Shown here one piece after another: positions 26,154 to 49,381 of a DNA stretch of 64,000 nt (its first letter is position 1; the number at the start of each line of letters is the position of its first letter). The DNA comes from a virus (lineage: Duplodnaviria > Heunggongvirae > Uroviricota > Caudoviricetes). Below the pieces are notes generated by a model. It was not told the origin of the DNA, did not search any database, and saw nothing but the letters and a program-made list of their open reading frames with translations. The DNA lies in the IMG/VR virus record IMGVR_UViG_2576861193_000002, one strand, 5' to 3'. The translations under genes and the position numbers were made by a program.

Positions 26154-26209
26154 TTCAGGCTGGCGGTGTAATGCACCGCCAACTTGAAATATTTTTTATG
26201 AGAAAAATT

Positions 26210-26404: not shown

Positions 26405-26606
26405 AATTACCGCCACTATTGAAAAGGAAGGTGGCACTCCTACTAACTGGACAAGATATTCAAAATCTAAACTAACGAAATCAGAATGCGAAAAAATGCT
26501 CTCAGGTAAAAAAGAAGCAGGCGTTTCCAGAGAGCAGAAAGTAAAACTGATAAATTTTAATTGCGAGAAACTTCAGTCCTCGAGAATTGCATTGTATTCA
26601 AATTAA
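26397..26606 (+). CDS. ydaC: YdaC-like protein
   Basis: 69 aa, MYKITATIEKEGG…; Rac synteny. Confidence 0.7.
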   Translation: MYKITATIEKEGGTPTNWTRYSKSKLTKSECEKMLSGKKEAGVSREQKVKLINFNCEKLQSSRIALYSN

Positions 26607-26684
26607 AACTTCATAGCTGATTATTAATAATCAACATCGGGCGTCAATTTCAGTCTAACATTGGCGCCTGCCAGAGGTGATGCG

Positions 26685-26900
26685 ATGGCACAAGTAATCT
26701 TTAATGAAGAGTGGATGGTTGAATACGGCCTGATGCTTCGCACTGGTCTGGGGGCCAGACAAATTGAAGCATACCGCCAGAACTGTTGGGTGGAGGGCTT
26801 CCACTTCAAACGAGTATCTCCTTTAGGTAAGCCAGACAGCAAACGAGGGATTATCTGGTACAACTATCCAAAGATAAATCAGTTTATCAAAGACTCATGA
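26685..26900 (+). CDS. xisR: excisionase XisR
   Basis: 71 aa immediately upstream of integrase. Confidence 0.75.
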
Positions 26901-26901
26901 T

Positions 26902-28137: not shown

Positions 28138-28188
28138 TTGCAAAGTTTGCCCCCAATTTGCCCCACTTAGTACCAGAGAACTGAAATA

Positions 28189-29124: not shown

Positions 29125-29252
29125 CCAGGATAGCGCCCGATGCGCAAGCGTATCGGGCTACTCTTATGGAGGCCGGATAAGACGCGGCCAGCGTCGCATC
29201 CGGCAATCCCGAATAAGATGTTTACTCTTGCACCCGGCAATTCAACATTTCA

Positions 29253-30626: not shown

Positions 30627-30655
30627 AATCTATTCTCGTGGTCATCGACGCAAAG

Positions 30656-30829
30656 TTAGCAGGCGCGTATCCTCGCAGATCTACGCTCACGATGCGACAA
30701 TTTAATCGGTTCTTCATCGGGTGGTGGGTCAGGCATGGGTTGCGGGCGAGGGATCGGATCGGGCACTGGAACAGGATCGCCAGGAATCGGTTCAGGGACA
30801 GGAATTTGCAAATAAATAAGTGTCGTCAT
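30656..30829 (-). CDS. candidate 57-aa proline-rich upstream ORF
   Basis: SD gaggga + ATG; MTTLIYLQIPVPEPIPGDPVPVPDPIPRPQPMPDPPPDEEPIKLSHRERRSARIRAC; ends 30 nt before dbpA start. Confidence 0.3.
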   Translation of the reverse strand: MTTLIYLQIPVPEPIPGDPVPVPDPIPRPQPMPDPPPDEEPIKLSHRERRSARIRAC

Positions 30830-30886
30830 ATTTCCCTCTGGTCATTGGGTGGACTCTTAAAGGGTAGACGCTGATAAATAACAGGC

Positions 30887-30998
30887 AAAAAAAAGCCGAC
30901 TCATCAAAGTCGGCGTCGTACGAATCAATTGTGCTATGCAGTAATTCAAAAAAGGAAGTAAGACAATATGGAGCGCAACGCCCATCGCTTGACGTTGC
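30887..30998 (-). ncRNA. fnrS: FnrS small RNA
   Basis: Reverse complement reads GCAGGTGAATGCAACGTCAAGCGATGGGCG…GCCGACTTTGATGAGTCGGCTTTTTTTT, matching FnrS as recalled; terminal hairpin + U-run. Confidence 0.8.
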
Positions 30999-31043
30999 AT
31001 TCACCTGCAAGAGAGATATTGCCCTGAATGGGTAGAGAGTTTA

Positions 31044-31057
31044 TTGACTTCGCTCAA
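31044..31057. promoter_or_regulatory. FNR box upstream of fnrS
   Basis: TTGAG-cgaa-GTCAA close to FNR consensus TTGAT-N4-ATCAA. Confidence 0.6.
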
Positions 31058-31103
31058 ACTTTGCGGCGTTTTTGTATACAGACAGCCGGAAAAATTGCTT
31101 TTG

Positions 31104-32108
<1,005 letters not shown>

Positions 32109-32482
32109 TTATTTTGTAGTCTAGCCTTCTGGCCCTGTTACGCAACATCTCATCACCCCATTACCCTGAAATGATTAATAAAATTCTGTCTAAATTGAAT
32201 ACAAAAAGCAAAATGCTTTTCCGTATACAAACCGTGTGAAGTGTTAAATAGCGTCTATCATTATCAGAATTATCTGATCATATGACGTGGCTTTTTTGCG
32301 ATCGGATAGCAACAAAAATTGATAAAAATAACGGGATCTCAATGATTACGCACAACTTCAATACCCTGGACTTACTCACCAGTCCTGTCTGGAATGGTTA
32401 GCACTATTAATAATAATTTATAAAACAGTATGTTATAGTGCTTTTGTTTTTGGTTTTGGATATTTGGTCACTATTTGGTACA

Positions 32483-32510
32483 CAAAAAGAAACGAGGCGT
32501 TAGCCTCGTT
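32483..32510 (-). terminator. intrinsic terminator after tail fibre gene
   Basis: Hairpin aacgaggc-gtta-gcctcgtt followed by U-run on minus strand. Confidence 0.55.
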
Positions 32511-32541
32511 TCGCGCGGCGATGTTCTTCGCACATCACCTC

Positions 32542-34731: not shown

Positions 34732-34865
34732 CGCAATGACTCCATTTTGTTAATTAACGGAATAATTCTACCATTTTGTGATCTGTGTTGCATTTTATGC
34801 TTATACAAAATGTATATTATAATAAACAAAGCAACAAATACACACAATCTGAGTGGGGTGTACTA

Positions 34866-35084
34866 ATGAAAATGGTAACAATTATCGCTGTTGCGGCTAT
34901 TCTGGTTGGTTGCGCTGACACTAATCGACACAACGGTCATTGTGCAACTAGCGCATACGGTGTCTGCTATGAAAGATGGGTTGATGGTGTAATGGTTCCT
35001 GCCGGGGAAATTTGTCGGGTGTATGATGGCACTGATGGCCATAGTGGCAAGACTAGAGATTGCGGAAGTAAGGAGTGGTATTAA
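34866..35084 (+). CDS. Cys-rich small lipoprotein (candidate receptor-masking / superinfection exclusion)
   Basis: 72 aa; signal peptide + lipobox LVGC; 6 Cys; counter-oriented between tail fibre and J. Confidence 0.55.
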   Translation: MKMVTIIAVAAILVGCADTNRHNGHCATSAYGVCYERWVDGVMVPAGEICRVYDGTDGHSGKTRDCGSKEWY

Positions 35085-36019
35085 TGGGTGCAGGTATATA
35101 TATTGGGCTGAATGACGGACGCCCTGCAATGGAAATAACAAGCGGGTTGCGTGCGTTCTCACACGCTGGAGATTTCAATATTCAAAAGGCCGGGTTTTTG
35201 CAAAGTTTTTCCATAAAGGATTTAACTGGCGGAGATAAGTTTTTAATCCCAAAGGCAGGCGCTTACGCGTTTGAGCTTGACCGGGGCGTTGAAACATATT
35301 TTATATCAGGCTTTAGTGCTTCTGGTGGCACGGCAAGGATTTCAATTAGTGGTGAGAACGCATATTCTGATAGGATCACTAATTTTAGCGGTAGCGTGTT
35401 TGAGATAGCAAAGGCGTCTACTGGTGAGGGTATATTAGTTGCAGATAGCACAGGTTTTGCATCGATAACGACTAACGATACATTGATGTCATGTTTATGG
35501 GTTGGAAGTGTTAGCTTTACTGGGTCTTACACTATGCCAGTTGCTGGCGTTCCTTTCGGTAACTGGAGCAATAGCGGAGTTTCAGTTGAGTTTGACGGAA
35601 ACAATAAATTGATCTGTACAAACACAAACACCTCTTCCACTGGTGACACATATGGATCTGTGGCGATGAATTTGGCTATTTTTAGCAAATCACCGCCATC
35701 ACCTGGCGACGGAATAACCATCATCAATAAAAATAATCAATGCGTGTTTTCAACAAAACAAAGGCCATTGGTTGTTAAGGGATTTATAACGTTATCTAAT
35801 AGTTATCAGAATATTGGTGACGCATTCTTCCCAATATTGAGATGCGGCTTTAATACCAGAGCCATTAAAGCATACAAGGAGCTAAGATACAAAGGCATTA
35901 TGATGTACAATGGGCAGGTGAAAAGCGGAACAGGATCAAGGATTGTCAGGTATGAAATAGGTAACAGGCCGGATTTCTGTATAGGTATGAAGCTACCTTA
36001 TTTGCCAGCAATTTATTAA
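35084..36019 (+). CDS. hypothetical Ser/Thr/Gly-rich protein
   Basis: ~311 aa; ATG overlaps lipoprotein stop, SD aaggag; no recognisable family. Confidence 0.5.
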   Translation: MGAGIYIGLNDGRPAMEITSGLRAFSHAGDFNIQKAGFLQSFSIKDLTGGDKFLIPKAGAYAFELDRGVETYFISGFSASGGTARISISGENAYSDRITNFSGSVFEIAKASTGEGILVADSTGFASITTNDTLMSCLWVGSVSFTGSYTMPVAGVPFGNWSNSGVSVEFDGNNKLICTNTNTSSTGDTYGSVAMNLAIFSKSPPSPGDGITIINKNNQCVFSTKQRPLVVKGFITLSNSYQNIGDAFFPILRCGFNTRAIKAYKELRYKGIMMYNGQVKSGTGSRIVRYEIGNRPDFCIGMKLPYLPAIY

Positions 36020-36059
36020 TAAAATTAGTTGCCCCAACCATTTGGCGGGGCAACAGTTA

Positions 36060-39000
36060 TTACCAAACACCAATAATAATTTTACCACCACTAGGAAGAT
36101 TTACCGTAATGCCGTTATTGTTAATAATTACCCGTCCGTCACTATTGCGTACATCGAAATTTTGATTGCCTTTAACAATGACGTTACCCCTTACGGTGAC
36201 TTCGTTGAATTGCGCCCATCCATCTTTGTTAATCATCCAACCTTTTGAGTCTTGAACAAATACGGTTGACTGGATTTGCTGCGCTATTTTTGCAGTACCG
36301 ATAGATCCGTCTTTAATAAACGCTTCTTTAACATACATTGCATCATTGGTGGTATAGAAAGGTGATGTGTATGTGCCGTTTGCTGCGGTCATCAACACGA
36401 AGCGGTCAACGAGGAAAATACACTGCGATTGAACGTTAGTGCCGCTACCAGTCAGCCCAAGAGACATACCTGTTGCATACTTCATGCCGTTGTTGTCGGT
36501 TGCCAGCTTGATAGAGTACGTCGCATCAACATTACCTTTGAAGTCGGTTAACGCTTTCGACGTCGTCTGTATCGCTGTTGTGTTCCCGTTAACGGTCACT
36601 GTTAGCTGATCGATTTTGCTTGATAATGCCTCGTCAGCCGTCGCCATTGCCTGCGACCATTCTGTAATATTTGAGTTTACAGAATCGAAAGACGCTGAGA
36701 TCTGGCCAAATTTTTCCGCGCTTGATGCTTCATGCGTAGAAAGTGCCGTTGACACCTCTGATACCTTCGAATTAATCGTACTGGTAAGCGATGAGTTAAG
36801 ACTACTGATTGCGTCAGTACGGGCCTTCGTTTCGTCTGCAATAGCCTTATCAATACGGGTTACGTTACTTGTCACCTTACTATCAAGCGTGGAAATTGAT
36901 GCGTTCACTCCGCTGATAGCCTGGGCGCGGGCGCTTGATTCGTCGGCAATAGCCTGATCCAGCCTGCTAACTTCAGATTCAGTGTTGTTTTCAAGCGTGC
37001 TAATACTTGCATTCACTCCACTGATAGCTTCAGTTCTTGCGCTTGTCTCATCTGCAATGGCTTTATCAAGACGGCTTATTCTTGAATCCGTTTTCTTGTC
37101 TAGCGCTGACACTGAGGCATTTACTCCGCTGATAGCCTCGCTGCGTGCGCTGGTTTCGTCTGCAATTGCCCTATCAAGGCGGTTGACGCTTGCTTCCGTC
37201 TTCCTATCAAGATCGGTGATCGATGCGTTTACGGAGCTAATGGCTTCCGCTGTGGCTTTTTTCTCCTCTGCTATAACATTGTCAATACGGTCAATTTGCG
37301 CGTTGGTTTCTTTGCGGCCTTTCTTGTATTGGGCCGTGAGAGTAACCCGCGTGTTGGTTTGAGCAATAGAGTTGTTGATAAGTGCGATTGAGGCGTTTTG
37401 CAGACTTGCTTTAGTCTGATTTATTTCGTCGCTGTTTTTGTCAACGTTATTTTCAACAGTGCCAAGCTCCGCGCTGATGCCCGATATTGCCTGTGCACGG
37501 GCGCTTGATTCATCTGCAATTGCCTGATCAAGACGTTTAACGCTGGCGTTTGTGCTATTTTCAAGCGTTGTTAAATCAGCTTTAACCTCTGTTATTGCGG
37601 CGCTTCTTGCCTGCGTTTCATCTGATATTGCTTTATCAAGACGGGAAACGCTCGCGTCAGTTTTGCTTTCAAGATTGCTTATTGAGGCGTTAACGTCGCT
37701 AATGGCCTGGGTGCGGGCACTGGTTTCATCTGCAACCGCTTGATCCAGTCTGCTTACTTCTGATTCTGTATTGTTTTCAAGTGTGCTAATACTTGCATTC
37801 ACGCTACTGATAGCGTCTGTGCGTGCTTTTGTTTCGTCTGCTATCGCTTTATCAATGCGGTTAATGTTGCTTGTAACTTTGCCGTCAAGCGTGGAAATTG
37901 AGGTATTCACGCCGCTGATGGCTTCAGTTCTTGCACTGGTTTCATCTGCAATTGCCTGATCCAAGCGTTTTACGCTGGCGTCAGTTTTCTTGTCTAGCGT
38001 TGAAATACTTGCATTTACGTCGCTGATGGCTTGAGTCCGCGCGCTAGTCTCGTCAGCGATTGCTTGATCAAGGCGGTTAACGCTTGCGTCAGTTTTCTTA
38101 TCAAGATTGCTTATTGAAGCGTTTACACCGTTAATAGCTTCAGCGCGGGCGCTGGCCTCGTCAGCTACTGCGCGCTGCACGTTAGAAATCTGACCTTTAA
38201 GGTTGGAGTCCATCGTATTCATTTCTGCTGTGATGGTTTCCAGTGATTCCGCTGTCGCTTTTTTCTCTTCAGCGATAACGTTGTCAATGCGGTCGATTTC
38301 CGCTTTAGTCTCTGTCCTGCCTTTCTTGTACTGAGCGGTAAGAGTTACGCGCGTGTTTGTCTGTGCAAGTGAGTTATTAATAAGAGCAAGTGACGCGTTT
38401 TGCAGGCTTGCTTTTGCTTGCGCCAGTTCGCTGCCAACTTTTTCGCTGGACACTTCTAATGAGTCAATTCTTGCCTCATGCTGTCCAATATCATCGGCGT
38501 TTTCCTCAACCTTTTTATAAAGATCTTCCGTTTCTTTTTTCAGTGTGTCCGTATCAGCTTTTATGGCCCCTGTTTCTGTGATTAGGCCGTCCGTATCAAT
38601 CCTCAAATCGTCAGTGATGTTTGTCAGGTTGTCCGTGTCAACCCTCAAATCGTCAGTGATGTTTGTCAGGTTATCAGTTGCAGTTTTGAGGTTGTCGGTA
38701 GCAGTTTTAAGGTCATTTGTAGCGCTTTCGATAAGATCAGCGCGGTCGCCAAGATCTTTAATGTCGCTAATCATCCCCTTAAACTGTTCTGAATTAATTA
38801 CGTCTTTTGTGACGTAGTCGCTAATTTCATCGAAGTTTTCAGTTGGTTTGCCTGATGCCTCAACGAAATCTGACACGCCAAAAGCGTTACGTGTACGAAT
38901 ATAAACGTAATAGGTGTGCCCCGTGTTCATGCCGCCAAAAGTCCACTGATAGCCGCGCCCGGTAAACTGCGCTGATGTGGTTACTTTTGATGGATCTGTG

Positions 39001-41243
39001 ATCTGGTTTTCACCTGCGAAGTAAAATTCGTATGCTGTATCAGTGGTCAGGGTTGTTTTGCTAATCGGATACACTGTTGCCTGGAAAACACCAGGAACCC
39101 AATTAACGCCGACCGGGGCCGCTGGTGCACCAATAACCAGGTCCACAATACTTTCCGCACCCTTCATGCCAGTGTCATTACGCCCGCGAATACCAAGCGT
39201 GTAGCTGCCAGTATCAAGGCCATAAAACTCATAGCGGTAATTCGTTGTTTCATAAGTTGCCACCACGCGGCCTTCGGCGTTATATACGCGTATTTCAAAG
39301 GTCAGGCGATGCGTTGTCGTCTGTGTTTCCCATGTAGCGCGACATTGAACAGTTTCAGAACCAACATTTAACACCTTCAGGTTTTCAATGTTCGGCACGC
39401 GGAAGTGATTAAGCGTGTCGTTGTTTACCTCAAAGATTGCGCCTTCATCGACTACAGCCTGTTTATGTGGGTCATGCTGTGCTGCCTCGATGGTGTACAC
39501 GCTGTTGTTTTCAGTTTCTGCTACGCTGATGATTCGGCACAGGACGGGTTTTGCTGCGTCAGTTGATACAGCAAAAACAGTTCCGTTACGAATCCACGCG
39601 GGGGCGGCTGCAAGGGTGATATTGTTTCCGTTAACTCCGGTGATCTGGTGTTTTTTAAACTTGCCATCACTATCAAGTAAACTAATGGTATCGCCTGCGG
39701 CGATGTATTCCGAATCAACCTTATCTACCGTTATCACCTTGCCATTATTCGCCACGATACGACCGCCAAAACGAGCGCCTGCGCGGTTATTGTCGAGTAT
39801 CTCGATAATATCCCCAGGGGTGAAGTGAATTGCGTCGCGGGCCATTTTAAACGTGAATTTTGATGGTTCGCGTTTTGCTGTTTCTATCAGCCACTTGCCA
39901 GCGCGGTATGCCTGCCCGCGTGAAGTGCAACCGAAAGCCTCTAGCGTGGTTTCGTTATAACCATCGCGGGCGATCAATTCATCATCTGCCACGTATTCTT
40001 TTGATTGCTCCCAACCGTTTTCCGGGTCAGTCCATGACACGATAACTGCGTTGTAAGATTCTGCACGGGCAATACTTGAACGAGTAAACGCGCCATCAAC
40101 AACGTTAGCATTCGTGATGGTAGCAATTGGATCTTGCGGTGCATCAATCATCACCGTAAGGCGCTGCCCATCCCATAACGCGATACCACGGAACATGCCT
40201 GCGATATTGTCCAGTAAGTCGCGGGCGCTCATTTGCTCAGTTATGTAAGCATTAAGCGTCATGCGAGGTTCAAAGCCGCCGTAACCGTCGTTTACCAACT
40301 GGTCGCAGTATTGAGAAAGCGTATATAATGCGCCGTCGTCAACATCAATGTAACCAGCATGACGTGCAAGCCCGAAACGTTCATTTTTAACCAGATACCG
40401 GAATAGCCACGCAGGGTTATTGGTGTACGCTTTTTTAAATCCACCTAGCCATAAACCTGAATACGTGCGCGTTTCAGGGTTATAGTTGTCAGGCACATCA
40501 ACAATCAGTCCGCGCAGATGATAGGTGCGGGTAGGTGTATCAGTATACTGGTCATGGTCAATTACAGCACCAGCTACAGCGGTATGAGGGTAAGACAGGT
40601 TATCGTCGATTATTTCGCTGTAGCTACTCCACCGCGTATCATTACGAAGAAGATCGCTTTTGCTGTCTGCTGTTACGCGACGAACGCGAATATCAAACGG
40701 CTTTTCATCCGGCGCTTTGATAATGTGAGCTTCCAGATATTCACCGCTTTGTTTACCGGGACCAATGTGTATACCTTTAACCGGCGACCACGTAGAAGAT
40801 GATGACGGTTTAACATCAACCACCAACATAACGGATGTATTATATTGATTGCCCTCATCATCTGACTGAACAAGAGCATCAACGCCAAGATTTAACCTTA
40901 CGCGGGTAACGTTTGGATCTGAAACAGTCCTTATTATTGGCGTGTCGTGAGTTACCTTTGCGTTGACAATAACGGTTGATTCGATGGCATTAAAACCATT
41001 AATCGGCGATTGGTCAGCCGTGCCGTTGCGCCAGGCTATACTAATCCCAGGAATTGATGTGTTTCCGTTTGCGTCAGTGATAGGCGTGTCATTAAGCATT
41101 ACGTTGTTTAATGGCGCATTCTGGTTAACTACTCCAAAAATTGGTCCTTCACTTAGAATATCTAAAACCCGATAAAATTGTTTATGAAACAAATTATCAT
41201 TAAGCAAAGTTGGTGTTTTTGCTTTACCGCCGCCACTAGACAT
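36060..41243 (-). CDS. J-like host specificity / central tail fibre protein with long coiled-coil repeat insert
   Basis: 1727 aa; follows L-K-I; middle third is tandem ~35-aa repeats (…DETSARTQAISDVNASISTLDKKTDASVKRLDQAIA…). Confidence 0.85.
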   Translation of the reverse strand: MSSGGGKAKTPTLLNDNLFHKQFYRVLDILSEGPIFGVVNQNAPLNNVMLNDTPITDANGNTSIPGISIAWRNGTADQSPINGFNAIESTVIVNAKVTHDTPIIRTVSDPNVTRVRLNLGVDALVQSDDEGNQYNTSVMLVVDVKPSSSSTWSPVKGIHIGPGKQSGEYLEAHIIKAPDEKPFDIRVRRVTADSKSDLLRNDTRWSSYSEIIDDNLSYPHTAVAGAVIDHDQYTDTPTRTYHLRGLIVDVPDNYNPETRTYSGLWLGGFKKAYTNNPAWLFRYLVKNERFGLARHAGYIDVDDGALYTLSQYCDQLVNDGYGGFEPRMTLNAYITEQMSARDLLDNIAGMFRGIALWDGQRLTVMIDAPQDPIATITNANVVDGAFTRSSIARAESYNAVIVSWTDPENGWEQSKEYVADDELIARDGYNETTLEAFGCTSRGQAYRAGKWLIETAKREPSKFTFKMARDAIHFTPGDIIEILDNNRAGARFGGRIVANNGKVITVDKVDSEYIAAGDTISLLDSDGKFKKHQITGVNGNNITLAAAPAWIRNGTVFAVSTDAAKPVLCRIISVAETENNSVYTIEAAQHDPHKQAVVDEGAIFEVNNDTLNHFRVPNIENLKVLNVGSETVQCRATWETQTTTHRLTFEIRVYNAEGRVVATYETTNYRYEFYGLDTGSYTLGIRGRNDTGMKGAESIVDLVIGAPAAPVGVNWVPGVFQATVYPISKTTLTTDTAYEFYFAGENQITDPSKVTTSAQFTGRGYQWTFGGMNTGHTYYVYIRTRNAFGVSDFVEASGKPTENFDEISDYVTKDVINSEQFKGMISDIKDLGDRADLIESATNDLKTATDNLKTATDNLTNITDDLRVDTDNLTNITDDLRIDTDGLITETGAIKADTDTLKKETEDLYKKVEENADDIGQHEARIDSLEVSSEKVGSELAQAKASLQNASLALINNSLAQTNTRVTLTAQYKKGRTETKAEIDRIDNVIAEEKKATAESLETITAEMNTMDSNLKGQISNVQRAVADEASARAEAINGVNASISNLDKKTDASVNRLDQAIADETSARTQAISDVNASISTLDKKTDASVKRLDQAIADETSARTEAISGVNTSISTLDGKVTSNINRIDKAIADETKARTDAISSVNASISTLENNTESEVSRLDQAVADETSARTQAISDVNASISNLESKTDASVSRLDKAISDETQARSAAITEVKADLTTLENSTNASVKRLDQAIADESSARAQAISGISAELGTVENNVDKNSDEINQTKASLQNASIALINNSIAQTNTRVTLTAQYKKGRKETNAQIDRIDNVIAEEKKATAEAISSVNASITDLDRKTEASVNRLDRAIADETSARSEAISGVNASVSALDKKTDSRISRLDKAIADETSARTEAISGVNASISTLENNTESEVSRLDQAIADESSARAQAISGVNASISTLDSKVTSNVTRIDKAIADETKARTDAISSLNSSLTSTINSKVSEVSTALSTHEASSAEKFGQISASFDSVNSNITEWSQAMATADEALSSKIDQLTVTVNGNTTAIQTTSKALTDFKGNVDATYSIKLATDNNGMKYATGMSLGLTGSGTNVQSQCIFLVDRFVLMTAANGTYTSPFYTTNDAMYVKEAFIKDGSIGTAKIAQQIQSTVFVQDSKGWMINKDGWAQFNEVTVRGNVIVKGNQNFDVRNSDGRVIINNNGITVNLPSGGKIIIGVW

Positions 41244-41802
41244 ATAGACCCCCTGTTTCGTGTAATTTCGTGTATCCTGCGCCAGCTTTATTTAGCTCTT
41301 CAATCATGAATGACCGCCACGCGACGGCGGCATTAATAGCCATTTCAAGTCCACCGCACGCTATAACGCTAAATGATTTACTAACTCTTTTGTCGTTATC
41401 AGCGGTGATACGTGCTCTAATAGATCTCCCTTCTGCGTGCCAACATATCCCAAATGGCAATCCGCTCTCCCTTGTCGCGCGACCTATGGTCATATTTCTG
41501 GCGTTACCTTTTTTATCTGTTACGCGTATGTTATTGAATTTATTATTAAGCCCATTACCATCAATGTGATCGATGATCTCACTGCGTTTTAATTTTCTGC
41601 CACTGCATAATTCGTAAACAATCCGGTGAGCATAATAGCGACGGCCCTTCCATGTGATTTTCCAGTACTTATTGCCGCTTTTTGCCGCTACTATTTTTCC
41701 TGCCGCATCGCCAGTCCTCGCCGTTCTGCTGTTAGCGGTGACTTTCCACCTTAAACATGAAGGAGAATCTTCATCATAAACAAACAATTCAGACCAGTTC
41801 AC
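41236..41802 (-). CDS. HNH homing endonuclease (HNH_3-type)
   Basis: 188 aa; motif IDHIDGNGLNNKFNNIR; inserted between tail genes I and J. Confidence 0.75.
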   Translation of the reverse strand: MNWSELFVYDEDSPSCLRWKVTANSRTARTGDAAGKIVAAKSGNKYWKITWKGRRYYAHRIVYELCSGRKLKRSEIIDHIDGNGLNNKFNNIRVTDKKGNARNMTIGRATRESGLPFGICWHAEGRSIRARITADNDKRVSKSFSVIACGGLEMAINAAVAWRSFMIEELNKAGAGYTKLHETGGLYV

Positions 41803-42345: not shown

Positions 42346-43019
42346 TTGTCAGATCTCCATATTGAATGCGTTTGTCTAACATAAGCGGGCCGCATTTGCT
42401 CGCGGCGGCTTAATAGTCCGGCATTGTCATGATGCAAAACGGTGTTATCTCCCAGGTAAATCATCGCGTGACATGGGTCAGCACCCTTAAACGGCTGACG
42501 GATAATCACGTCACCCGGCTGAATGCTTTGCGCGTCAACCATGAAAAACCCGTTCAATGGCAGGTTTTTTATATACAGGTTTTCCCCACGCAGCCACCAC
42601 CCATCGTGGCGTTCAAAGTCCGGTAGATCCACGCCGCAAAGGTGATAGGCGTCACGGAAAAGCGAGTAGCAGTCTGTTTTACCGTGCTCAAATTTACGAC
42701 CTAACAGGTGAGCTACAGGGCGGAACTTTCTTACCCTGCCACCGGAACATAAAAACCACGGCAGGCCGGAAATAACTTGCTGTTGTCGATCCCGTGCTGA
42801 CAATACTAATGAATTGTCAGTATGGGAGTGAAAAACTGCAGTTATAACGCCTAATTCGTCAGCTTTGATATAATCGTCAGGCGAGATTTTAAAGCTGTTG
42901 TGAGGCGTTTCAGACACGTTTAAGCATGGGTAAAAATAATCGTTATCTATCACCAGCCCGCACACCTCCTCTTCCTGGTGGGCTGCTGCATAGCGAATCA
43001 TTTTATCTTCAAGTGCCAT
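42288..43019 (-). CDS. tail assembly protein K-like (JAB/MPN + NlpC/P60-type)
   Basis: Start set at internal Met MALEDKMIRYAAAH; EVCGLV motif; C-terminal Cys/His region. Confidence 0.7.
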   Translation of the reverse strand: MALEDKMIRYAAAHQEEEVCGLVIDNDYFYPCLNVSETPHNSFKISPDDYIKADELGVITAVFHSHTDNSLVLSARDRQQQVISGLPWFLCSGGRVRKFRPVAHLLGRKFEHGKTDCYSLFRDAYHLCGVDLPDFERHDGWWLRGENLYIKNLPLNGFFMVDAQSIQPGDVIIRQPFKGADPCHAMIYLGDNTVLHHDNAGLLSRREQMRPAYVRQTHSIWRSDKCSNLDLRAIFEDITARCV

Positions 43020-43021
43020 AA

Positions 43022-43726
43022 TTAACCCACCTTGCTCGATCCAGGAAAACATGAAATTGGTAACGGATTCGGGCGCGGAAAACGCAAACGGCAACCGCTT
43101 AGGCGGTGGCTGCATTTGTCCATCCTTGGATCGTTGGTTGATTCGTCTTTATCGGTAGCTACAGGGCCGCCACTATATCCGCAACCGTCGCCGCGATACT
43201 GCCACTGGCAAACGTCAGCGAGAATTGTGCGCCCAGGGATAACAGCTTTATCAGCATCAATTGGCGTTGACAGTTCATATTGCACCTGGTCGGCTGTTTC
43301 TTCGCTCATCGCCTCAACGACGTAAAAAGATACAGCCTCAATAGATGGATCTGCATCTGGGTTGCCGTTGGGGAAGTTGATAGCGTCCAGGTATTTTACT
43401 TCCACCTGGCGGCGCGTAACCTTCATTCCTCGAAGGTCGTTAAAATCGTTATTCATCCCAGTGATTAGCCCGCCAATGTTGGCTACTACCATTTGGGGGC
43501 GTGAGTAAACGCCTTCGTTTTTCATTTCGAAGCCAGTCGCCTCGATTGGGTAGCTGTTGTAGGCCACTCCCTTCCAGATAACCGGGCCGTAATAGCCATT
43601 CGCGCCGGAATGGAAGCGGATAATCTCGCCACCCAGGGGCGTGAGGTCTAATTCAAACAAGTCAATTACCGCACCGACTCCGGCATCCACGGAATCAATA
43701 ATCATTTCTGTAGGTATGCTGCGCAT
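43022..43726 (-). CDS. minor tail protein L-like
   Basis: 234 aa; synteny M-L-K-I-J; C-terminal Cys cluster. Confidence 0.75.
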   Translation of the reverse strand: MRSIPTEMIIDSVDAGVGAVIDLFELDLTPLGGEIIRFHSGANGYYGPVIWKGVAYNSYPIEATGFEMKNEGVYSRPQMVVANIGGLITGMNNDFNDLRGMKVTRRQVEVKYLDAINFPNGNPDADPSIEAVSFYVVEAMSEETADQVQYELSTPIDADKAVIPGRTILADVCQWQYRGDGCGYSGGPVATDKDESTNDPRMDKCSHRLSGCRLRFPRPNPLPISCFPGSSKVG

Positions 43727-43743
43727 TTTATCACCTTGTAATT

Positions 43744-43807
43744 TGTGATCGACGTCACGCTAAATCATACCAAAACGGTTGATAGCGCTTTTTACAATAT
43801 GTATATT
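43744..43807 (+). promoter_or_regulatory. sigma70-type promoter with upstream CRP-like site for the moron cassette
   Basis: TGTGA-tcgacg-TCACg (43744-43759) centred ~62 bp upstream of predicted TSS; -35 TTGATA (43779-84), 17-bp spacer, -10 TATATT (43802-07). Confidence 0.5.
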
Positions 43808-43853
43808 GTACTCAAAAGGAAGCATGGTTAACAAAATGGCGCGGAGGTGTGAG

Positions 43854-44009
43854 ATGGTTGATAAGGTGTGGAGGTTGAAGGTATTCCTGGCGGATGGCAG
43901 GGAAATGACTGTAGCTCTGTATAAGGATGAAGGCGAGGCACTTACTGACGCGCTTTTACTCGCTGAAGACGAACGCGTTTTGGGGTACAGGATCGAACCC
44001 GTCAAATGA
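43854..44009 (+). CDS. hypothetical small protein (moron cassette gene 1)
   Basis: SD ggagg + ATG at 43854 (51 aa); the longer track ORF starts at 43779 inside the promoter. Confidence 0.45.
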   Translation: MVDKVWRLKVFLADGREMTVALYKDEGEALTDALLLAEDERVLGYRIEPVK

Positions 44010-44021
44010 GGGTTTAACAAA

Positions 44022-44372
44022 ATGCAAAAATACAGCTTAGATGTGTGGACTGATAAATGTGAATGGGAATGCATGGGCCTATTTGACACATATGCTGCGG
44101 CGCGTGATGAAGGTCGCGAATTACTTCTCTGTTGGTCTAACGCTCGTGATTTTGATATTACTCCGGTCCAAGTACCGGATAAGGTGGAAGAGATGAACCC
44201 TAAAGATATTGATGTTAGCTTCAATGTTAACTTTGCTGACTCTATGGATCAGTCTTGCCCTGGTGAAATACACGCAAAAGGTTTCCCCGCTGACGATCCA
44301 GAAGCAAAACGCGAATACGAAAAAGCGGCAAAAGATTTCTGTATCGACAATTTGTCTGCGTTCGATAAATAA
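44022..44372 (+). CDS. hypothetical acidic protein (moron cassette gene 2)
   Basis: 116 aa, rich in D/E, 5 Cys; no recognised family. Confidence 0.5.
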   Translation: MQKYSLDVWTDKCEWECMGLFDTYAAARDEGRELLLCWSNARDFDITPVQVPDKVEEMNPKDIDVSFNVNFADSMDQSCPGEIHAKGFPADDPEAKREYEKAAKDFCIDNLSAFDK

Positions 44373-44381
44373 GGCGGCAAC

Positions 44382-44630
44382 ATGGGGCGGCGCAATCACG
44401 GTGATTATGTGTACACGTTGAAACAGGCCGCCCGCCTCATCGGTTATCATGAGCACGAATTTATTGATTTGCTGATCGAGCGCGGGATTTTGTATCAGGT
44501 TTGTTTAACGCTGTACCCGAAAGCTAAGTACCTACAAGAAAAGTTATTCATCATTATGACGGATGAAAACCAGGTCAATCACTCATTCGTCACTGATAAA
44601 GGCGTTAATTATCTGCGTGATAACTTATAG
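44382..44630 (+). CDS. hypothetical protein with HTH-like segment (moron cassette gene 3)
   Basis: 82 aa; …YTLKQAARLIGYHEHEFIDLLIERGIL…. Confidence 0.5.
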   Translation: MGRRNHGDYVYTLKQAARLIGYHEHEFIDLLIERGILYQVCLTLYPKAKYLQEKLFIIMTDENQVNHSFVTDKGVNYLRDNL

Positions 44631-44781
44631 GTGACAGATTATAAAATAGAAGTTTTGGCGCTAATAATAATGGGACTGATAGTATTTGGCGTTCACGCTG
44701 TCGATTGGGACTGGGCGGCGATAGCCAATAACATGGCGCACGCTCACCCAATGAGTTTGATGTACATTAACTACTGACAAG

Positions 44782-44811
44782 AAAAACCCCGCACGAAGCG
44801 GGGTTGTTTTT
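44782..44811. terminator. bidirectional intrinsic terminator
   Basis: aaccccgc-acgaa-gcggggtt flanked by A-run and T-run. Confidence 0.65.
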
Positions 44812-44995
44812 ATACATCATCAACCAAAAATAAAACTTCCTTCCCTTCCCTGGATCTGCACCCCACGTACCCATCACCCATATCATGTAGATACCAGGTA
44901 TCGCCATTGTCAGCCTTTACAGTAAGGTCGTTGATCTCGTAGTCGTCAAATAATGTAAAAGCGTCAGTTTTGTCCACTACACAAGTCCCGTACAT
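44810..44995 (-). CDS. hypothetical small protein downstream of M
   Basis: 61 aa from MYGTCVV with SD gggggt; acidic. Confidence 0.4.
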   Translation of the reverse strand: MYGTCVVDKTDAFTLFDDYEINDLTVKADNGDTWYLHDMGDGYVGCRSREGKEVLFLVDDV

Positions 44996-45006
44996 ATTAA
45001 CCCCCA

Positions 45007-45360
45007 CTAGCTGACAACTTGCTCAAATGTTGCGTTTAGCGTGTATACAGGCCCGTCCTTTGTCATACTCCAGCTACGGCAAACAAAAAGCCTTTGCACG
45101 CCATCCATAGACGGCGACCAGTAAAAAGCCTCGACAGCGCCGCGCGCCCTCAAGAATGCTTCTGCCTGGATCGCTACGTTCCCACCATCACCGCATCCTG
45201 CACTACTGCCTTTAAAGACCAGGGTGTAGCTATCAAGCAACGTGTTAATCCCTTTCGCCTGGCGCTGTTCATAACCATCACCAAGTTTAATGACAGATAC
45301 GTTTGGTTCCCTGGTCACGCTGTAGCTTCTTTGCGGCGTCCATCTGAAAACTTCTGGCAT
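45007..45360 (-). CDS. minor tail protein M-like
   Basis: 117 aa; between tape measure and L. Confidence 0.65.
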   Translation of the reverse strand: MPEVFRWTPQRSYSVTREPNVSVIKLGDGYEQRQAKGINTLLDSYTLVFKGSSAGCGDGGNVAIQAEAFLRARGAVEAFYWSPSMDGVQRLFVCRSWSMTKDGPVYTLNATFEQVVS

Positions 45361-45529
45361 GATTCCCCCTATAAGTTACATATTGCATACATCTTTACGC
45401 GCTTCTACGCGAAAAATGAGAAATTCATCACAAGAATTATAACCAGTTTACAAAATGGCTTCACATAAGGCGTGACAAGATGTATATAGTAAGCAAGAAG
45501 AAAAAGCAGTACCGACAAAGGGGGGCAAT

Positions 45530-45685
45530 ATGGAACGCTATGTGGTTGTGATGCTGAACAAAGCATTCGAACAGGTGGAAGTTGCGATTGTGAAGGGCTT
45601 TGATGATGCATTCAAATACGGTCAATTTATGATGAATGCGAAGGAAAATGAGTACCGTGATTTCTTCCTAAAAGTAGTCAACTGA
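45530..45685 (+). CDS. hypothetical 51-aa protein (first gene of T5orf172 cassette)
   Basis: Strong SD aaagggggg then ATG; MERYVVVMLNKAFEQVEVAIVKGFDDAFKYGQFMMNAKENEYRDFFLKVVN. Confidence 0.45.
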   Translation: MERYVVVMLNKAFEQVEVAIVKGFDDAFKYGQFMMNAKENEYRDFFLKVVN

Positions 45686-45705
45686 TTGATTGCGTGGGGT
45701 GAGTT

Positions 45706-45960
45706 ATGAAATTGGTAATGATTGGCAAAAACCTGAAAGCTCAGAAAAACGCGCCGGAACATGTAGTTAAAAAAGCAAAGGAACTTTTGAACGCGTTTTT
45801 AAACAAGAATGCGTCACCCAAAAAATTGAAAGACGGTTACGGCTACGCCTTCCGCGCCAATTTAGACTGGCGAGTCTATAGCCAGGATCTGAAGGAGTGG
45901 GTGATTGTTGAACACCATAAATTCAATGAATTGTCTGGCGTTCGCGGTTGCCATAAGTAA
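45706..45960 (+). CDS. hypothetical 84-aa basic protein (weak RelE/ParE-like C-terminal pattern)
   Basis: SD ggggtgag; …GYGYAFRANLDWRVYSQDLKEWVIVEHHKF… is reminiscent of RelE-fold toxins but unconfirmed. Confidence 0.45.
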   Translation: MKLVMIGKNLKAQKNAPEHVVKKAKELLNAFLNKNASPKKLKDGYGYAFRANLDWRVYSQDLKEWVIVEHHKFNELSGVRGCHK

Positions 45961-46047
45961 GGCGGGATATGGATGACGATAAATTCACCCGGCGGGAGAT
46001 CTGGAATATTTAGTTGGTGATTTTCGTGAGGGGATATATCTCGCGGA

Positions 46048-47007
46048 ATGGTCGGATATAAAATGGGTGTGATTATGGCGCGAAAAATGACACATGAAGA
46101 ACATATTGCAGATATAGCAAATGTCAATCCTCGTGTTGATATTTTAGGAGAAATTACAGGCTGCAATGATAAGGTGTCGTGTCGTTGCAGAGTTTGTAAC
46201 CACAAATGGCGTACTACGCCGCACAGCCTTAAGGCTGGCAGGGGCTGCCCCGAATGTAAAAGAACAAAGATAGCACGAATAAAACAACTATCACATAACG
46301 ATCATGTTGCTGCAATTGCTAATGTTAATCCATTTGTTGAAGTGCTAGAAAAAATTGTTAATGTAAAGAAAAAGATCGCATGTCGTTGTAATAATTGCAA
46401 AAACATATGGATGACTACGCCAAATGATCTCAAAAACGGTCACGGCTGTCCGAAATGCTCTGGCGTAGCGAAGCTGTCACATGAAGAGCAGATTGCAGCT
46501 ATTGCGAAAGTTAACCAAAATGTTGATGTAATAGGCAATATTGTTAATGACAAAACAAAAGTATCATGCCGCTGCAAGGCTTGCGGTCATGTGTGGTCGG
46601 CTACGCCTAACGACCTTAAAAATGGGCGCGGCTGCCCGAAATGCGCGAAACGAGGGTTTTTATCCCACGAACACGGAAAACTTTACATCATGGTTGATGA
46701 TCTTGAAGTGCCAACAATGATGAAAATCGGCGTGAGCGTTAAGGAGAACGAGCGAAGAAATAAAGTATTAAAAAGCGCACATAAAGCAGGTGTCAGAATC
46801 CCTGATTTGTATGTCGTGAAAACGTGGGTGGGGCCAACTGAAAAAGTACAAGAATTAGAAAGCACGATGCATAAGGCTTTTAGCAATTATAAAATTAACT
46901 TCCCTGTAAAATTTGATGGCAGTAATGAATTTTTCTACTACAGGCCGGAAGTATTCAGCATGGTAGAAAGTACATACAGTGATATTGTAAATAAAAATGC
47001 GGCATGA
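46048..47007 (+). CDS. T5orf172 / GIY-YIG-like domain protein with three tandem zinc-ribbon repeats
   Basis: 319 aa; three ~60-aa repeats each with CRCxxC…GCPxC; C-terminal LYIMVDD…MMKIGVS GIY-YIG-like motif. Confidence 0.6.
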   Translation: MVGYKMGVIMARKMTHEEHIADIANVNPRVDILGEITGCNDKVSCRCRVCNHKWRTTPHSLKAGRGCPECKRTKIARIKQLSHNDHVAAIANVNPFVEVLEKIVNVKKKIACRCNNCKNIWMTTPNDLKNGHGCPKCSGVAKLSHEEQIAAIAKVNQNVDVIGNIVNDKTKVSCRCKACGHVWSATPNDLKNGRGCPKCAKRGFLSHEHGKLYIMVDDLEVPTMMKIGVSVKENERRNKVLKSAHKAGVRIPDLYVVKTWVGPTEKVQELESTMHKAFSNYKINFPVKFDGSNEFFYYRPEVFSMVESTYSDIVNKNAA

Positions 47008-47047
47008 ATATTCAGCCCACCACCATTAGTGACGGGCTTATTCTTAG

Positions 47048-49255
47048 TTATCTTTTTCGTGGCTGTATAATCCCCCCGGGGCGCGTGCTCTGCTCCCTCA
47101 CAACACCCATAGCAACCTTCTTCATCGTCTCTTGCAGTTTGGCGCTGTCCTGCTCGGTCCATCCGTTCTCGGCTGTTATGTTGATGGTAACAGGCATGTT
47201 GATGCCGCCACCGCCGCCAATGTCGCGATTTGGTATTACCCTGCCGTTGTCACCCGGAATCATGTACTGCTCGCCGTTTCGAGATTGGAAGATCTCTGGC
47301 TTGCCGTGCTCGCCAACCCTATAAAGATTATTGCTATTAACCGCACCGCCGTTATAACGAGCGCCAGCAAGCCCAAGCGCCTTAGCCCCAGCCACACCAG
47401 TGGCAAGACTCGTGCCCCCCACGGTCGCCGCTCCGCCCATCGTGGCAACGTTTGCCAGGTATGCAGGAGTGGCCCACGCAGATCCTAATGCAGTAGCCTC
47501 GGCTAGTGCTTTAGCTGTTGCCGCAGCGCTGGCGGCCTCACCGATCAATTGCTGTTTAACCCATTCAGCCCCCATTTGAACAAGTGTACCGATAACGGAG
47601 GAAAGGATTGTATTGCCAATGTTAGCCAGCGCCTGCTGCCAACTTTGAGTGCCGTTAACCAGGCCCACAAGCGCATTTGTTGCAGATCCTCCCATTGCAT
47701 CAACGGTATCACCCAATAGTTTGTAGCTCATTGACTGTGCTTTATATCGCTCCCATTCAATGGAGATCATTTCTTGTGCGTGCGCTCTTTCTTGCTCCTT
47801 CATGTATTGCTCGGTAGCGCCAAGATCTTCCAGCATTTGCTTGCGTATGGTCCATTCATTTTGCGCCTGCTGTATTGGGTCCAGCTCGCCGCGCTTCTGA
47901 TCCAGTGATGAAATCATTTTGTCCCATTTTTCTTGCAGCCTATTGATCGGGTCGTTAATTTCTGCTAGAGTTTCGCGCAATTCATCACCAATTCCCTTCA
48001 TTGCGCCTTTGTATTCAAGCATGGTTATTTTCCCGGCTTTAAAGGCTGCATCTATGGCTTTTTGTGATTCAAGCGCTTTGCGCATTGCTGCTGAATCTTC
48101 GTTGTATGCATCTGAAATGCGCACACCCTGTTCCGCAAGGCGCTCGGCTTCTGATTTGCCGGATTTTTTACCTTTGCCTTTATTACCCTTGCCACCAGGT
48201 TGAGGCTTAAATGTTATGCGACTTACACCAGCTTGCCCCGTGGGGAGAGTGGAAACAAATGGCTGTTCTCCATCGCCAAACCATCCAACCTGTTTTGCTT
48301 GAGCGCGGAACAAACTAAGCCCAGGCACTATACCCTCAAACGCCCCAGCCAATAGCCACAATTTGTCAGTTAATGACGTGCTGTCGCTCGCCAGGGACTT
48401 AAACCAGCCGGATAATATTTGGACTTCACTAGAGATAGCTTGTATACCAGTAACCACCAAATCGGACACGCCAAGCGTTTGATTTAGCGTGTCGATTAGC
48501 AGATCGAAGTTGTTTTTTAGCTCGTTAAATGCCTGATCTGTTGTTGTTGGCAGCTTTGCGAAGTCCTTCTCTATGTCTTCTGCGCCAGCAAGAATTGCGT
48601 TGGTAACATCCTCAGCGGTGAGCTTACCATCAAGCATTCTTGCGCGAAGTTCACCCATCGAGATTCCCATTTGTTTGGATACGCGCCGCCACACCTCTGG
48701 CATGTTTTCAAGTACAGAGTTGTATTCTTCCGCGCGAACAATGCCGCCCGTCAGTGACTGCCCTAACTGGCGAAGTGCGTTTGACATTTCATCTGATGAG
48801 CTACCACCGATACGCCCTATTTTTTGAAGCGAGTCGGTAAGCTGCAATACCTGCTGACTTGTCGCACTGGTATCCTGAAGGCTGGCCTTCAGGCTTTCCC
48901 ACAGCTTCCCGGTGCTTTGAACGCTCATCCCTGTACGATTCGATATCTGAATAATCCCGTCAAAATTCGATTTTGCGTCAGCAATGCCACTCGACAGGCG
49001 CGTCACCCTGGCACGAAGCAGATTTACGTTATCCGCGATCTCCAGGAATTTTTTTGCAGCCATAACCATCATCCCAATGTTCACAGCTTTAGATAAATTA
49101 CTTATTGTGGTGTTAAGTGACTTTACTGATTTATCGGTGCGTTTAGCGCCTTGCTCGATTTTATCAAACGAGTCTTCAGCCTTGCGTTGAGCTACAAGTA
49201 ACCGTTCGGTTTTTGCGTCAACGGTATATTCGATCGTGCCTACATTTGTGGTCAT
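47048..49255 (-). CDS. tail tape measure protein
   Basis: 735 aa, coiled-coil rich, Gly-rich C-terminal region; between tail chaperone and M. Confidence 0.85.
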   Translation of the reverse strand: MTTNVGTIEYTVDAKTERLLVAQRKAEDSFDKIEQGAKRTDKSVKSLNTTISNLSKAVNIGMMVMAAKKFLEIADNVNLLRARVTRLSSGIADAKSNFDGIIQISNRTGMSVQSTGKLWESLKASLQDTSATSQQVLQLTDSLQKIGRIGGSSSDEMSNALRQLGQSLTGGIVRAEEYNSVLENMPEVWRRVSKQMGISMGELRARMLDGKLTAEDVTNAILAGAEDIEKDFAKLPTTTDQAFNELKNNFDLLIDTLNQTLGVSDLVVTGIQAISSEVQILSGWFKSLASDSTSLTDKLWLLAGAFEGIVPGLSLFRAQAKQVGWFGDGEQPFVSTLPTGQAGVSRITFKPQPGGKGNKGKGKKSGKSEAERLAEQGVRISDAYNEDSAAMRKALESQKAIDAAFKAGKITMLEYKGAMKGIGDELRETLAEINDPINRLQEKWDKMISSLDQKRGELDPIQQAQNEWTIRKQMLEDLGATEQYMKEQERAHAQEMISIEWERYKAQSMSYKLLGDTVDAMGGSATNALVGLVNGTQSWQQALANIGNTILSSVIGTLVQMGAEWVKQQLIGEAASAAATAKALAEATALGSAWATPAYLANVATMGGAATVGGTSLATGVAGAKALGLAGARYNGGAVNSNNLYRVGEHGKPEIFQSRNGEQYMIPGDNGRVIPNRDIGGGGGINMPVTINITAENGWTEQDSAKLQETMKKVAMGVVREQSTRPGGIIQPRKR

Positions 49256-49381
49256 GATTGCTACTCCAGTTTTGTGATCTGTGTCTCTATTTTATACAAA
49301 ATGGCTTTACTTCAGCGACTCCATTTTGTATAAGGAAGCCATAGGGAACAGTTAAGAAATCAAACAAAAACGAGGTGAATT

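Follow-up and report, generated by a model that had tools for sequence, protein, structure and literature searches.

Lambdoid morons such as HK97 gp15 reportedly lie within the tail gene cluster, as Juhala et al. 2000 and Cumby et al. 2012 are said to have described. The subject of this report is a cassette of four small genes (orfA, orfB, orfC, and orfD) that also sits among phage tail genes, at positions 43744-44811 of IMG/VR virus record IMGVR_UViG_2576861193_000002, a stretch of 64,000 nucleotides (nt) that is referred to below as the window. Its closest described counterparts are gp74-gp71 of phage mEp021 and gp99-gp96 of phage mEp013, which form the same cassette at 91-94% nucleotide identity, in the same position and gene order and with the terminator annotated as such in both genomes; mEp021 additionally has a 77-amino acid (aa) gene between orfB and orfC. 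In these GenBank records the genes are named only "hypothetical" or "putative antirepressor", and the paper on the mEpimmI group, to which both phages belong, mentions a "KilAC-like" core gene in a single sentence, without describing a promoter, regulation, or function for the cassette. According to PMC11893012, mEpimmI phages match lambdoid phages in frequency in a collection made from human faeces.

KilAC domains have been studied in several other settings. CreP, a stand-alone KilAC protein, is bacteriostatic, causes filamentation of E. coli, and co-precipitates FtsZ (bioRxiv 10.1101/2024.01.05.574328), while in Listeria the SOS response is suppressed by the KilAC domain of AriS (PMC9043618). 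For phi11 Gp07, growth inhibition in E. coli has been reported for its KilA-type domain.

The best explanation for the window's cassette, judged from its sequence and that of its relatives, is that it is a moron: an autonomous accessory operon fixed in the temperate coliphages of the mEp021 (mEpimmI) group. More tentatively, and with somewhat less than even confidence, we read it as a module that is transcribed by the host, probably modulated by the cAMP receptor protein (CRP), expressed from the prophage, and directed at the host or at competing phages. What the present work adds to the earlier records is the promoter with its CRP-like footprint, the recurrence of this arrangement across the phage, the paralogy of orfA and the N-terminal domain of orfB, a mobile 59-aa module with a probable internal start, and a contrast in evolutionary rate between genes.

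Anatomy and conservation of the cassette

The cassette is on the + strand, antisense to the late operon, and carries its own promoter, its own terminator, and a CRP-like site, as an original prediction made from the window's letters had proposed; the site proved to be conserved. That prediction also placed it between the tail genes L and M, which is correct for the L side (minor tail protein L, 43022-43726, - strand, PF05100, E = 6e-71); its neighbor on the other side is a 65-aa late-strand open reading frame (ORF; 44810-45007, - strand, phrog_3249) rather than M itself (minor tail protein M, 45007-45360, - strand, PF05939, E = 9e-29). M and L are adjacent in lambda. Besides the window, seven sequenced phages and no fewer than 35 E. 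coli prophages show this placement, with L on one side and the 65-aa ORF on the other.

Conservation of the genes as a unit, which had been put forward as a test of the idea, was evident: the cassette is present in all of the complete related loci, 52 in number, of which 8 are annotated records and 44 are IMG/VR contigs. No empty site was seen, and every relative retrieved already has the cassette. Over 43000-45400, the window is 91-94% identical to mEp013, mEp021, mEp515, mEp554, mEp044, and mEp010 and 88% identical to MagusPhagus; among 5,426 complete E. coli genomes, at least 35 carry prophages that share 83-93% identity with it. An exact match to this interval was found neither among sequenced phages nor in those 5,426 genomes. 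The GC content of the cassette (0.44) differs modestly from that of L and M (0.51).

A sigma-70-type promoter, TTGATA-17-TATATT, is predicted at 43779-43807 on the + strand, with its -35 hexamer at 43779-43784 and its -10 hexamer at 43802-43807. It scores 10 of 12 against the consensus, was the top + strand match in a local scan, and would start transcription near 43813-43815. Simple counts of such elements are within chance, both for promoter-like matches (8 found vs. 7.4 expected from shuffles) and for CRP-like matches across the window (4 found vs. 2.25 expected), and the case therefore rests on comparison with relatives. When 38 distinct versions of the L-to-orfA intergenic region were aligned, the mean pairwise difference was 0.000 in the -10 hexamer and 0.046 in the -35 hexamer, against 0.30-0.39 at third codon positions of L, M, orfA, and orfB, which served as the neutral reference. 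TTGAT and TATATT are unchanged in all 38 sequences, and the remaining variation clusters in the 5 nt that follow the -35 hexamer. The near-consensus promoter of the original prediction is thus present where it was placed, with a -10 hexamer that is invariant among the variants.

The same alignment bears on the CRP-like palindrome TGTGATCGACGTCACG (43744-43759), which has the form TGTGA-N6-TCAC and agrees with the TGTGA-N6-TCACA core at 9 of 10 positions. Its half-sites (TGTGA and TCAC[G]) show a mean pairwise difference of 0.016 and are essentially invariant, whereas the five central positions differ by 0.364 and four spacer positions vary freely. Because the arms are frozen while the spacer drifts at the neutral rate, the palindrome shows the footprint expected of a dimeric DNA-binding protein that reads TGTGA/TCAC, and is not a chance resemblance. 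Such a protein is most probably cAMP-CRP. A class I position had been proposed for the site. Class I sites are optimally centered at -61.5 (or -71.5, -82.5, or -92.5), and the center here, assuming a start 7 nt after the -10 hexamer, lies at about -62.5 in the window and at -63.5 in 22 of the 38 variants, which have one extra base; it is therefore near the canonical -61.5 but 1-2 bp away. Since the core promoter is already near consensus, CRP would modulate transcription rather than be required for it. A structured RNA or nut site was considered for the palindrome and rejected, as it would form a stem of only 4 bp and has no A-rich loop of the kind that boxB shows in the nut sites of mEp021. 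A literature search combining morons and CRP returned nothing useful.

At its other end, the cassette closes with a bidirectional intrinsic terminator (44785-44805), whose 8-bp stem contains six GC pairs and is flanked by T-runs on both strands. It folds with an energy of -16.7 kcal/mol (z = -4.6) on one strand and -16.6 kcal/mol (z = -3.9) on the other, and the hairpin is kept in most relatives, with loop variants or inversions and one alternative hairpin. The bidirectional terminator that had been predicted is borne out by these features, and from its structure it is common to the cassette and the oncoming late transcript. No Rfam match was found in 43000-47200.

Recurrence of the regulatory design across the phage

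Elements of this arrangement recur elsewhere in the phage. A second antisense moron (45361-47047) lies between M and the tape measure gene (47048-49255, - strand), and it has its own CRP-like site, TGAGAAATTCATCACA (TGAGA-N6-TCACA; 45417-45432), about 58 nt before a promoter, TTCACA-17-TATATA (45460-45488). In 45 distinct relatives this site likewise has invariant arms and a free spacer. The second moron encodes a 51-aa ORF (45530-45685, phrog_29810), a protein with a ParE-like toxin domain (45706-45960, PF24732), and a protein of 319 aa (46048-47007) in which CapR/DUF4379 zinc ribbons are combined with a T5orf172 domain; relatives differ in what the 3′ part of this moron contains. A third case is the gene for the Cor-like exclusion lipoprotein Lpp (34866-35084, lipobox LVGC), the equivalent of mEp021 gp81, whose promoter has a CRP-like site, TGTGATCTGTGTTGCA (34777-34792), at roughly class II distance.

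The three promoters are linked by a further element. An imperfect inverted repeat, TACAATATGTATATTGTA (43793-43810), overlaps the -10 hexamer of the cassette, and an 18-nt -10 box, ACAAnATGTATATnnTA, is common to the cassette, the ParE-like unit, and lpp. Related 18-mers are found at the second moron's promoter (45474) and at the lpp promoter (34804), where about 0.04 extra matches would be expected by our estimate, and the lpp box, TACAAAATGTATATTATA (34804-34821), agrees with that of the cassette at 16 of 18 positions. The palindrome of the box is not strictly kept, in that position 43808 is G in 16 of the 38 variants and T in the other 22. Lpp excludes superinfecting phage when it is expressed (PMC11893012), and it must therefore act in the lysogen. 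The promoter design and -10 box shared with Lpp are thus the best argument that the cassette is expressed from the prophage. The original prediction had reached the same expectation from the antisense orientation, but orientation alone implies nothing of the kind; a sigma-70 promoter together with the -10 box shared with lpp makes the better argument.

The CRP-like core is also enriched in the mEp021 and mEp013 genomes. The first 28 kb of mEp021 contains four copies of GTGA-N6-TCAC (0.41 expected), and 38.8 kb of mEp013 contains three (0.57 expected). In the early region, two conserved intergenic sites of the extended form CGTGAT-N4-ATCACA lie 39 nt upstream of TG-TAAACT or TG-TATACT. These suggest, from sequence, that CRP-like control also reaches early genes. 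The two sites precede gp26 and ninF (mEp021 positions 16520 and 20097; mEp013 positions 14142 and 17725), and the ninF site is directly upstream of GCTCTTTAAAAA, read as boxA of nutR2.

Another motif accompanies these sites. In the 5′ untranslated region of the cassette, GTTAACAAAATGG (43827-43839) is conserved in the upstream alignment and is one copy, on the - strand and facing L, of a phage-wide motif, CC[AG]TTTTGT, that recurs in regulatory regions of the window, mEp021, and mEp013. Copies in the window are at 34742, 34771, 43831(-), 45450(-), 49296(-), and 49321; they are often followed by TATACT, TAAACT, or TATAAA, and the late-strand copies face L, M, and the tape measure gene. An inverted pair, TATACAAAATGG-N16-CCATTTTGTATA, is found at 49293-49332, beside a half CRP-like site, TGTGATCTGTGTCTCT (49273-49288). 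The motif copies could act as promoters within the tail genes, or a phage regulator could use them as its operator.

Recurrence of this kind cuts both ways, as it supports function for the sites and yet allows them to be operators of a phage-encoded regulator. For the regulatory part of our reading, it is therefore conceivable that the palindrome is such an operator, or part of an internal tail-gene promoter system on the opposite strand, an alternative that we consider possible but rather doubtful. The extended motif does occur far above expectation at the conserved early intergenic sites of mEp021 and mEp013, CC[AG]TTTTGT faces tail genes in the company of the CRP-like sites, and a promoter-like TTGTTA-18-TACAAT is found on the - strand at 43834-43805. 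However, the invariant positions are exactly those of the CRP core (TGTGA and TCAC), one half-site extends to GATCACA as in the CRP consensus, and the sites are spaced from the sigma-70-like -10 elements downstream of them approximately as in class I or class II promoters. Moreover, we know of no phage protein with such specificity. Binding by CRP remains our preferred reading of the palindrome.

Products of the four genes

The original prediction counted three genes, plus a possible hydrophobic ORF; the cassette has four, orfD being a real gene in relatives. Pairwise ratios of nonsynonymous to synonymous substitution rates (dN/dS), computed over 49 loci, were 0.36 for orfA (dN 0.20), 0.22 for orfB, and 0.11 for orfC, compared with 0.04 for L and 0.07 for M. 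Within orfB, the N-terminal half has a ratio of 0.33 (dN 0.345) and the C-terminal half one of 0.15 (dN 0.08). Because their ratios fall at 0.11-0.36, orfA, orfB, and orfC are real genes, and spurious ORFs can be dismissed. With dN at 0.20-0.35 for orfA and the orfB N-domain vs. 0.03-0.06 for L and M, the former change their protein sequence 6-10 times faster than the tail genes. The possibility that the cassette proteins are themselves ordinary tail-assembly genes was checked with profile searches of Pfam and PHROGs and set aside: none of them matches a tail family, and only L and M do.

Types of orfA and orfB are mosaic across loci; for example, one locus (L030) has an orfA 94% and an orfB 72% identical to those of the window, while in another (L007) the values are 71% and 91%. 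The 3′ part of the cassette gains and loses small ORFs for which no family match was found, including a 77-81-aa or HNH-like ORF between orfB and orfC, a 67-aa ORF after orfC, and a 58-aa ORF after orfD. The cassette site is a hot spot for such extra small ORFs. PADLOC gave no match for the products of orfA, orfB, orfC, or orfD at E values up to 1, and an NCBIfam search of the cassette proteins gave nothing.

The first gene, orfA (43854-44009, + strand, phrog_29559), most likely starts at ATG 43854, which follows GGAGG by 6 nt, and it would then encode a 51-aa acidic protein (isoelectric point, pI, 4.7). The reading frame is open from 43779, and not all variants have the upstream ATG at 43836 in frame; of the 51-76 aa originally proposed, the short form is accordingly preferred and the longer one is less likely. 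The homologs found all come from E. coli and its phages. In a profile-profile comparison (hhalign), orfA aligns end to end with the N-terminal domain of orfB (probability 87%, E = 4.5e-6), and by this alignment orfA is a paralog of that domain. The NCBI label "transporter" for orfA homologs was examined and rejected, as the product is a 51-aa soluble acidic protein with no family match; the name is probably a propagated misannotation.

The second gene, orfB (44022-44372, + strand), encodes the 116-aa protein that the original prediction had called acidic and unrecognized. It is indeed acidic (pI 4.3) and has no Pfam family, but it does match a PHROGs family, phrog_38567. Its homologs form 57 clusters, all from E. 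coli or its phages. The protein consists of a hypervariable N-terminal domain (residues 1-57) followed by a C-terminal module (residues 58-116) that hardly varies, alignable as M58...DSMDQSCPGEIHAKGFPADDPxAKREYEKAAKDFCIDNL. AlphaFold2 predicts a beta-beta-alpha-beta fold with pLDDT >90 for residues 1-50 and low confidence for the rest, including a helix at 93-111. The N-domain fold matches many viral proteins of 50-70 aa (target-normalized TM-scores of 0.7-0.84), some of them labeled DUF7336 or DUF2188; a Foldseek search of orfB against the PDB found nothing, and the literature on DUF7336 yielded nothing useful. One relative (P0051, 172 aa) has two N-type domains in tandem, followed by the C-module.

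The C-module appears to be a separable unit. Inside orfB, a Shine-Dalgarno sequence, AGGTGG, precedes the ATG of Met58 by 5 nt (44182-44195, + strand). The linker around them is otherwise variable; GGTGGAA persists in 46 of the 49 loci, and all 49 retain the Met58 ATG. Stand-alone homologs of the C-module, 56-60 aa in length, begin at the equivalent of Met58 (L053; P0066 and P0067). From these sequence features, the 59-aa C-module is probably also translated on its own from the internal start. In an unrelated 121-kb viral contig (L053), the stand-alone module is directly followed by an orfD homolog, and in a 58-kb phage with a Mu-type portal (L054) it lies within a cluster of small genes; no KilAC gene was found near the module in either. 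The plasmid collection contained no orfB C-module, and an exhaustive profile search with orfB among 1.84 billion representatives produced only 14 matches. Two large repeat proteins with OmpA-like repeats (P0068 and P0070) were discarded as homologs, since the resemblance is confined to a short motif, GHAKGxPADDNEAKR. This motif resembles the invariant IHAKGFPADDPEAKR of the C-module, probably as a motif-level coincidence.

The third gene, orfC (44382-44630, + strand), encodes an 82-aa protein (pI 6.9) that is a stand-alone KilAC/ANT domain. It had originally been listed as unrecognized, yet it matches PF03374 above threshold (E = 7e-7; 29.9 bits vs. a cut-off of 25.3) over profile positions 23-105 of 108, and NCBI annotates it as KilAC. 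Its homologs fall into seven clusters at 90% identity, six of which have precomputed PF03374 matches. Across the 52 complete loci orfC is 89-100% identical, and its matches beyond the group are confined to the C-termini of Rha, Bro, and Ant antirepressors, at 30-38%. TDKG at residues 71-74, with T71, D72, and G74 invariant, corresponds to TxKG, and AARLIG at 16-21 approximates AKxLxL, two motifs noted for CreP and for KilA of P1 (bioRxiv 10.1101/2024.01.05.574328). The AlphaFold2 model (pLDDT 75) has a strand-helix-helix-hairpin-helix order, and its best PDB matches in Foldseek are winged helices of the MerR type, BldC, and Xis, at a level that is not significant (E = 0.19, TM-score 0.42). The helix-turn-helix character that had been suggested is thus supported weakly, given this MerR-type match and a pI of 6.9. 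A search of orfC against solved structures by sequence found nothing significant, and a scan of genome contigs with orfC found no relevant locus. The synonymous divergence of orfC is unusually low (dS 0.29 vs. 0.72-0.87 for L, M, and orfB), which reflects either recent spread by recombination or a constraint at the nucleotide level.

Two readings of these genes compete with ours. One is that the cassette is an anti-defense operon resembling those of anti-CRISPR and anti-CRISPR-associated genes (acr-aca), in which orfA, orfB, and the extra ORFs would inhibit host immunity early, while orfC would be an Aca-like winged-helix autorepressor that binds the inverted repeat at the -10 hexamer and shuts the promoter before opposing late transcription. 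Variable small acidic genes beside one conserved small gene, a strong promoter, and an insertion hot spot all fit, as do the imperfect inverted repeat over the -10 hexamer and the winged-helix matches of the orfC model; convergence with the late operon would make such a shut-off useful. Nevertheless, we judge this unlikely. Those structural matches fall short of significance, orfC is neutral rather than basic, and KilAC domains ordinarily accompany KilA-N, Bro, or Rha domains as the partner that does not bind DNA. Moreover, the inverted repeat is broken in 22 of the 38 variants, and two further promoters, neither with an orfC-like gene close by, carry the box as well. Pfam, PHROGs, NCBIfam, and PADLOC gave no Acr or Aca match, although no dedicated Acr/Aca library was searched.

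The other competing reading, which strikes us as improbable, is a toxin-antitoxin-like module for abortive infection or stabilization, with orfC as putative toxin and orfB (perhaps orfA) as antitoxin; the disordered, conserved C-tail would wrap the toxin and the variable N-domains would sense invading phages. It draws on the bacteriostatic activity of which stand-alone KilAC proteins are capable, and on the layout of orfB, which is directly upstream of orfC, is acidic, and joins a folded N-domain to a low-confidence, conserved tail with a helix, as is usual for type II antitoxins. The neighboring moron also has a ParE-like toxin behind a 51-aa ORF, and hypervariable sensor domains are found in fused toxin-antitoxin defenses such as CapRel. 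However, the C-module occurs on its own in two unrelated phage contexts (L053 and L054), and because it does so without a KilAC neighbor, orfC is unlikely to be its partner. Some relatives have an extra gene or an HNH endonuclease between orfB and orfC, and PADLOC again gave no match.

The last gene, orfD (44631-44777, + strand), encodes a small hydrophobic product of about 45 aa, probably a single-pass membrane protein. The possible hydrophobic ORF of the original prediction proved to be a real gene in relatives, where it begins MKIEVLALI..., in a 45-aa or 38-aa form, behind AGGTG; in the window, its normal ATG has been lost by a 1-nt deletion (44640-44645), which changes the ATGAAAATA of relatives to ATAAAATA. 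The starts that remain are GTG 44631, without a Shine-Dalgarno sequence, TTG 44655, and ATG 44670, and orfD may therefore be poorly translated here. The gene is missing in 14 of 42 distinct variants.

With regard to its wider setting, the cassette belongs to a prophage of the mEp021 group that occupies the window from about 34.7 kb to its end, in an E. coli chromosome. The left part of the window is the dbpA-intR-zntB-ttcA region, matched in thousands of E. coli genomes; within 26000-36100, the J/Lpp end of the prophage (~34.7-36 kb) adjoins this chromosomal region, which is the seat of the Rac prophage in K-12. The late genes on the - strand run in the order tape measure, M, 65-aa ORF, L, K, I, HNH endonuclease ORF, and J. 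The 188-aa ORF between I and J (41236-41802) corresponds to the HNH endonuclease annotated in mEp021 (gp78); mEp013 lacks it here, as would fit a mobile insertion of the homing type.

Proposed role and comparison with known systems

In the reading that we favor, host sigma-70 RNA polymerase would most likely transcribe the cassette both in lysogens and when infection begins. Bound at the upstream TGTGA-N6-TCAC site, cAMP-CRP would modulate the output, and the hairpin would end the transcript. Late transcription would presumably pass the bidirectional hairpin and about 1.1 kb of antisense cassette to reach L under Q-type antitermination, and the Q-like late regulator annotated in mEp021 makes this plausible. 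By analogy with CreP, phi11 Gp07, and AriS, orfC most likely binds a host protein and so restrains cell division or the RecA/SOS response. The acidic 59-aa C-module of orfB probably docks on a conserved host target, and the fast evolution of orfA and the orfB N-domain suggests that they form an arms-race interface. The product of orfD would be an optional small membrane protein.

Several points weigh against this proposal. The promoter and start site are predictions, a promoter so near consensus may need no activator, and the CRP-like site, centered at -62.5 or -63.5, is displaced by 1-2 bp from the class I optimum. Its spacing to the -10 hexamer differs by 8 bp from that in the neighboring moron, which is not a whole helical turn, and an extended motif that recurs in the phage genome could be the operator of a phage-encoded regulator. 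On the side of the proteins, PADLOC and NCBIfam support no specific function, a constitutive growth-inhibiting KilAC protein would be costly in a lysogen unless neutralized, and orfC, whose predicted fold is weakly MerR-like, may be a regulator rather than an effector. Finally, presence in every member examined resembles a core phage function more than an optional lysogenic-conversion gene.

It is tempting to go further and to see in the cassette a hitherto undescribed, CRP-gated conflict system, in which paralogous hypervariable recognition domains are coupled to a 59-aa effector peptide, made from the internal start, and to a KilAC arrest protein, for prophage defense or anti-defense. Such a system would be one arm of a phage-wide CRP regulon, comprising the cassette, the ParE-like unit, the Lpp gene, and two early promoters, and tied to the carbon status of the host. 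This extended version is speculative, and we think it decidedly unlikely. If the site binds CRP, prophages would couple several accessory units, including a KilAC protein that possibly restrains division or SOS-driven induction, to the nutritional state of the host, and there would be a testable link between carbon supply in the gut and prophage behavior. The paralogous, fast-evolving domains and the mobile 59-aa module are also candidates for new phage-host or phage-phage interaction proteins. Should none of this hold, the cassette would be an ordinary moron with uncharacterized cargo.

Like the classical lambdoid morons, the cassette is additional DNA among tail genes that brings a promoter and a terminator of its own, a lower GC content, and possibly a small membrane protein (orfD). 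It differs from them in running against the late operon, in comprising several genes, in being found in all members examined, and in having cargo unrelated to gp15. The lac-type class I CRP promoters share with it a TGTGA-N6-TCAC site about 62 bp before the start, which is predicted in the present case; those promoters are weak without CRP, whereas the core promoter of the cassette is near consensus and its site is slightly displaced from -61.5.

Similar partial likenesses are seen for the genes. The acr-aca operons also combine variable small acidic genes, a conserved small gene, and a strong promoter with an inverted repeat, but the conserved gene of the cassette encodes a KilAC domain, at best a putative DNA binder. 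CreP of Acinetobacter baylyi, compared here by description only, resembles orfC as a single KilAC domain (~100 aa) with TxKG and AKxLxL-like motifs; it is repressed by the CRISPR-guided CreA RNA inside a cas locus, whereas orfC is in a phage operon behind a sigma-70 promoter. Finally, AriS and the Ant, Bro, and Rha proteins with KilAC domains share the Pfam domain of orfC, which aligns with their C-termini at the 30-38% identity noted above, but they carry an N-terminal regulatory domain and orfC stands without one.

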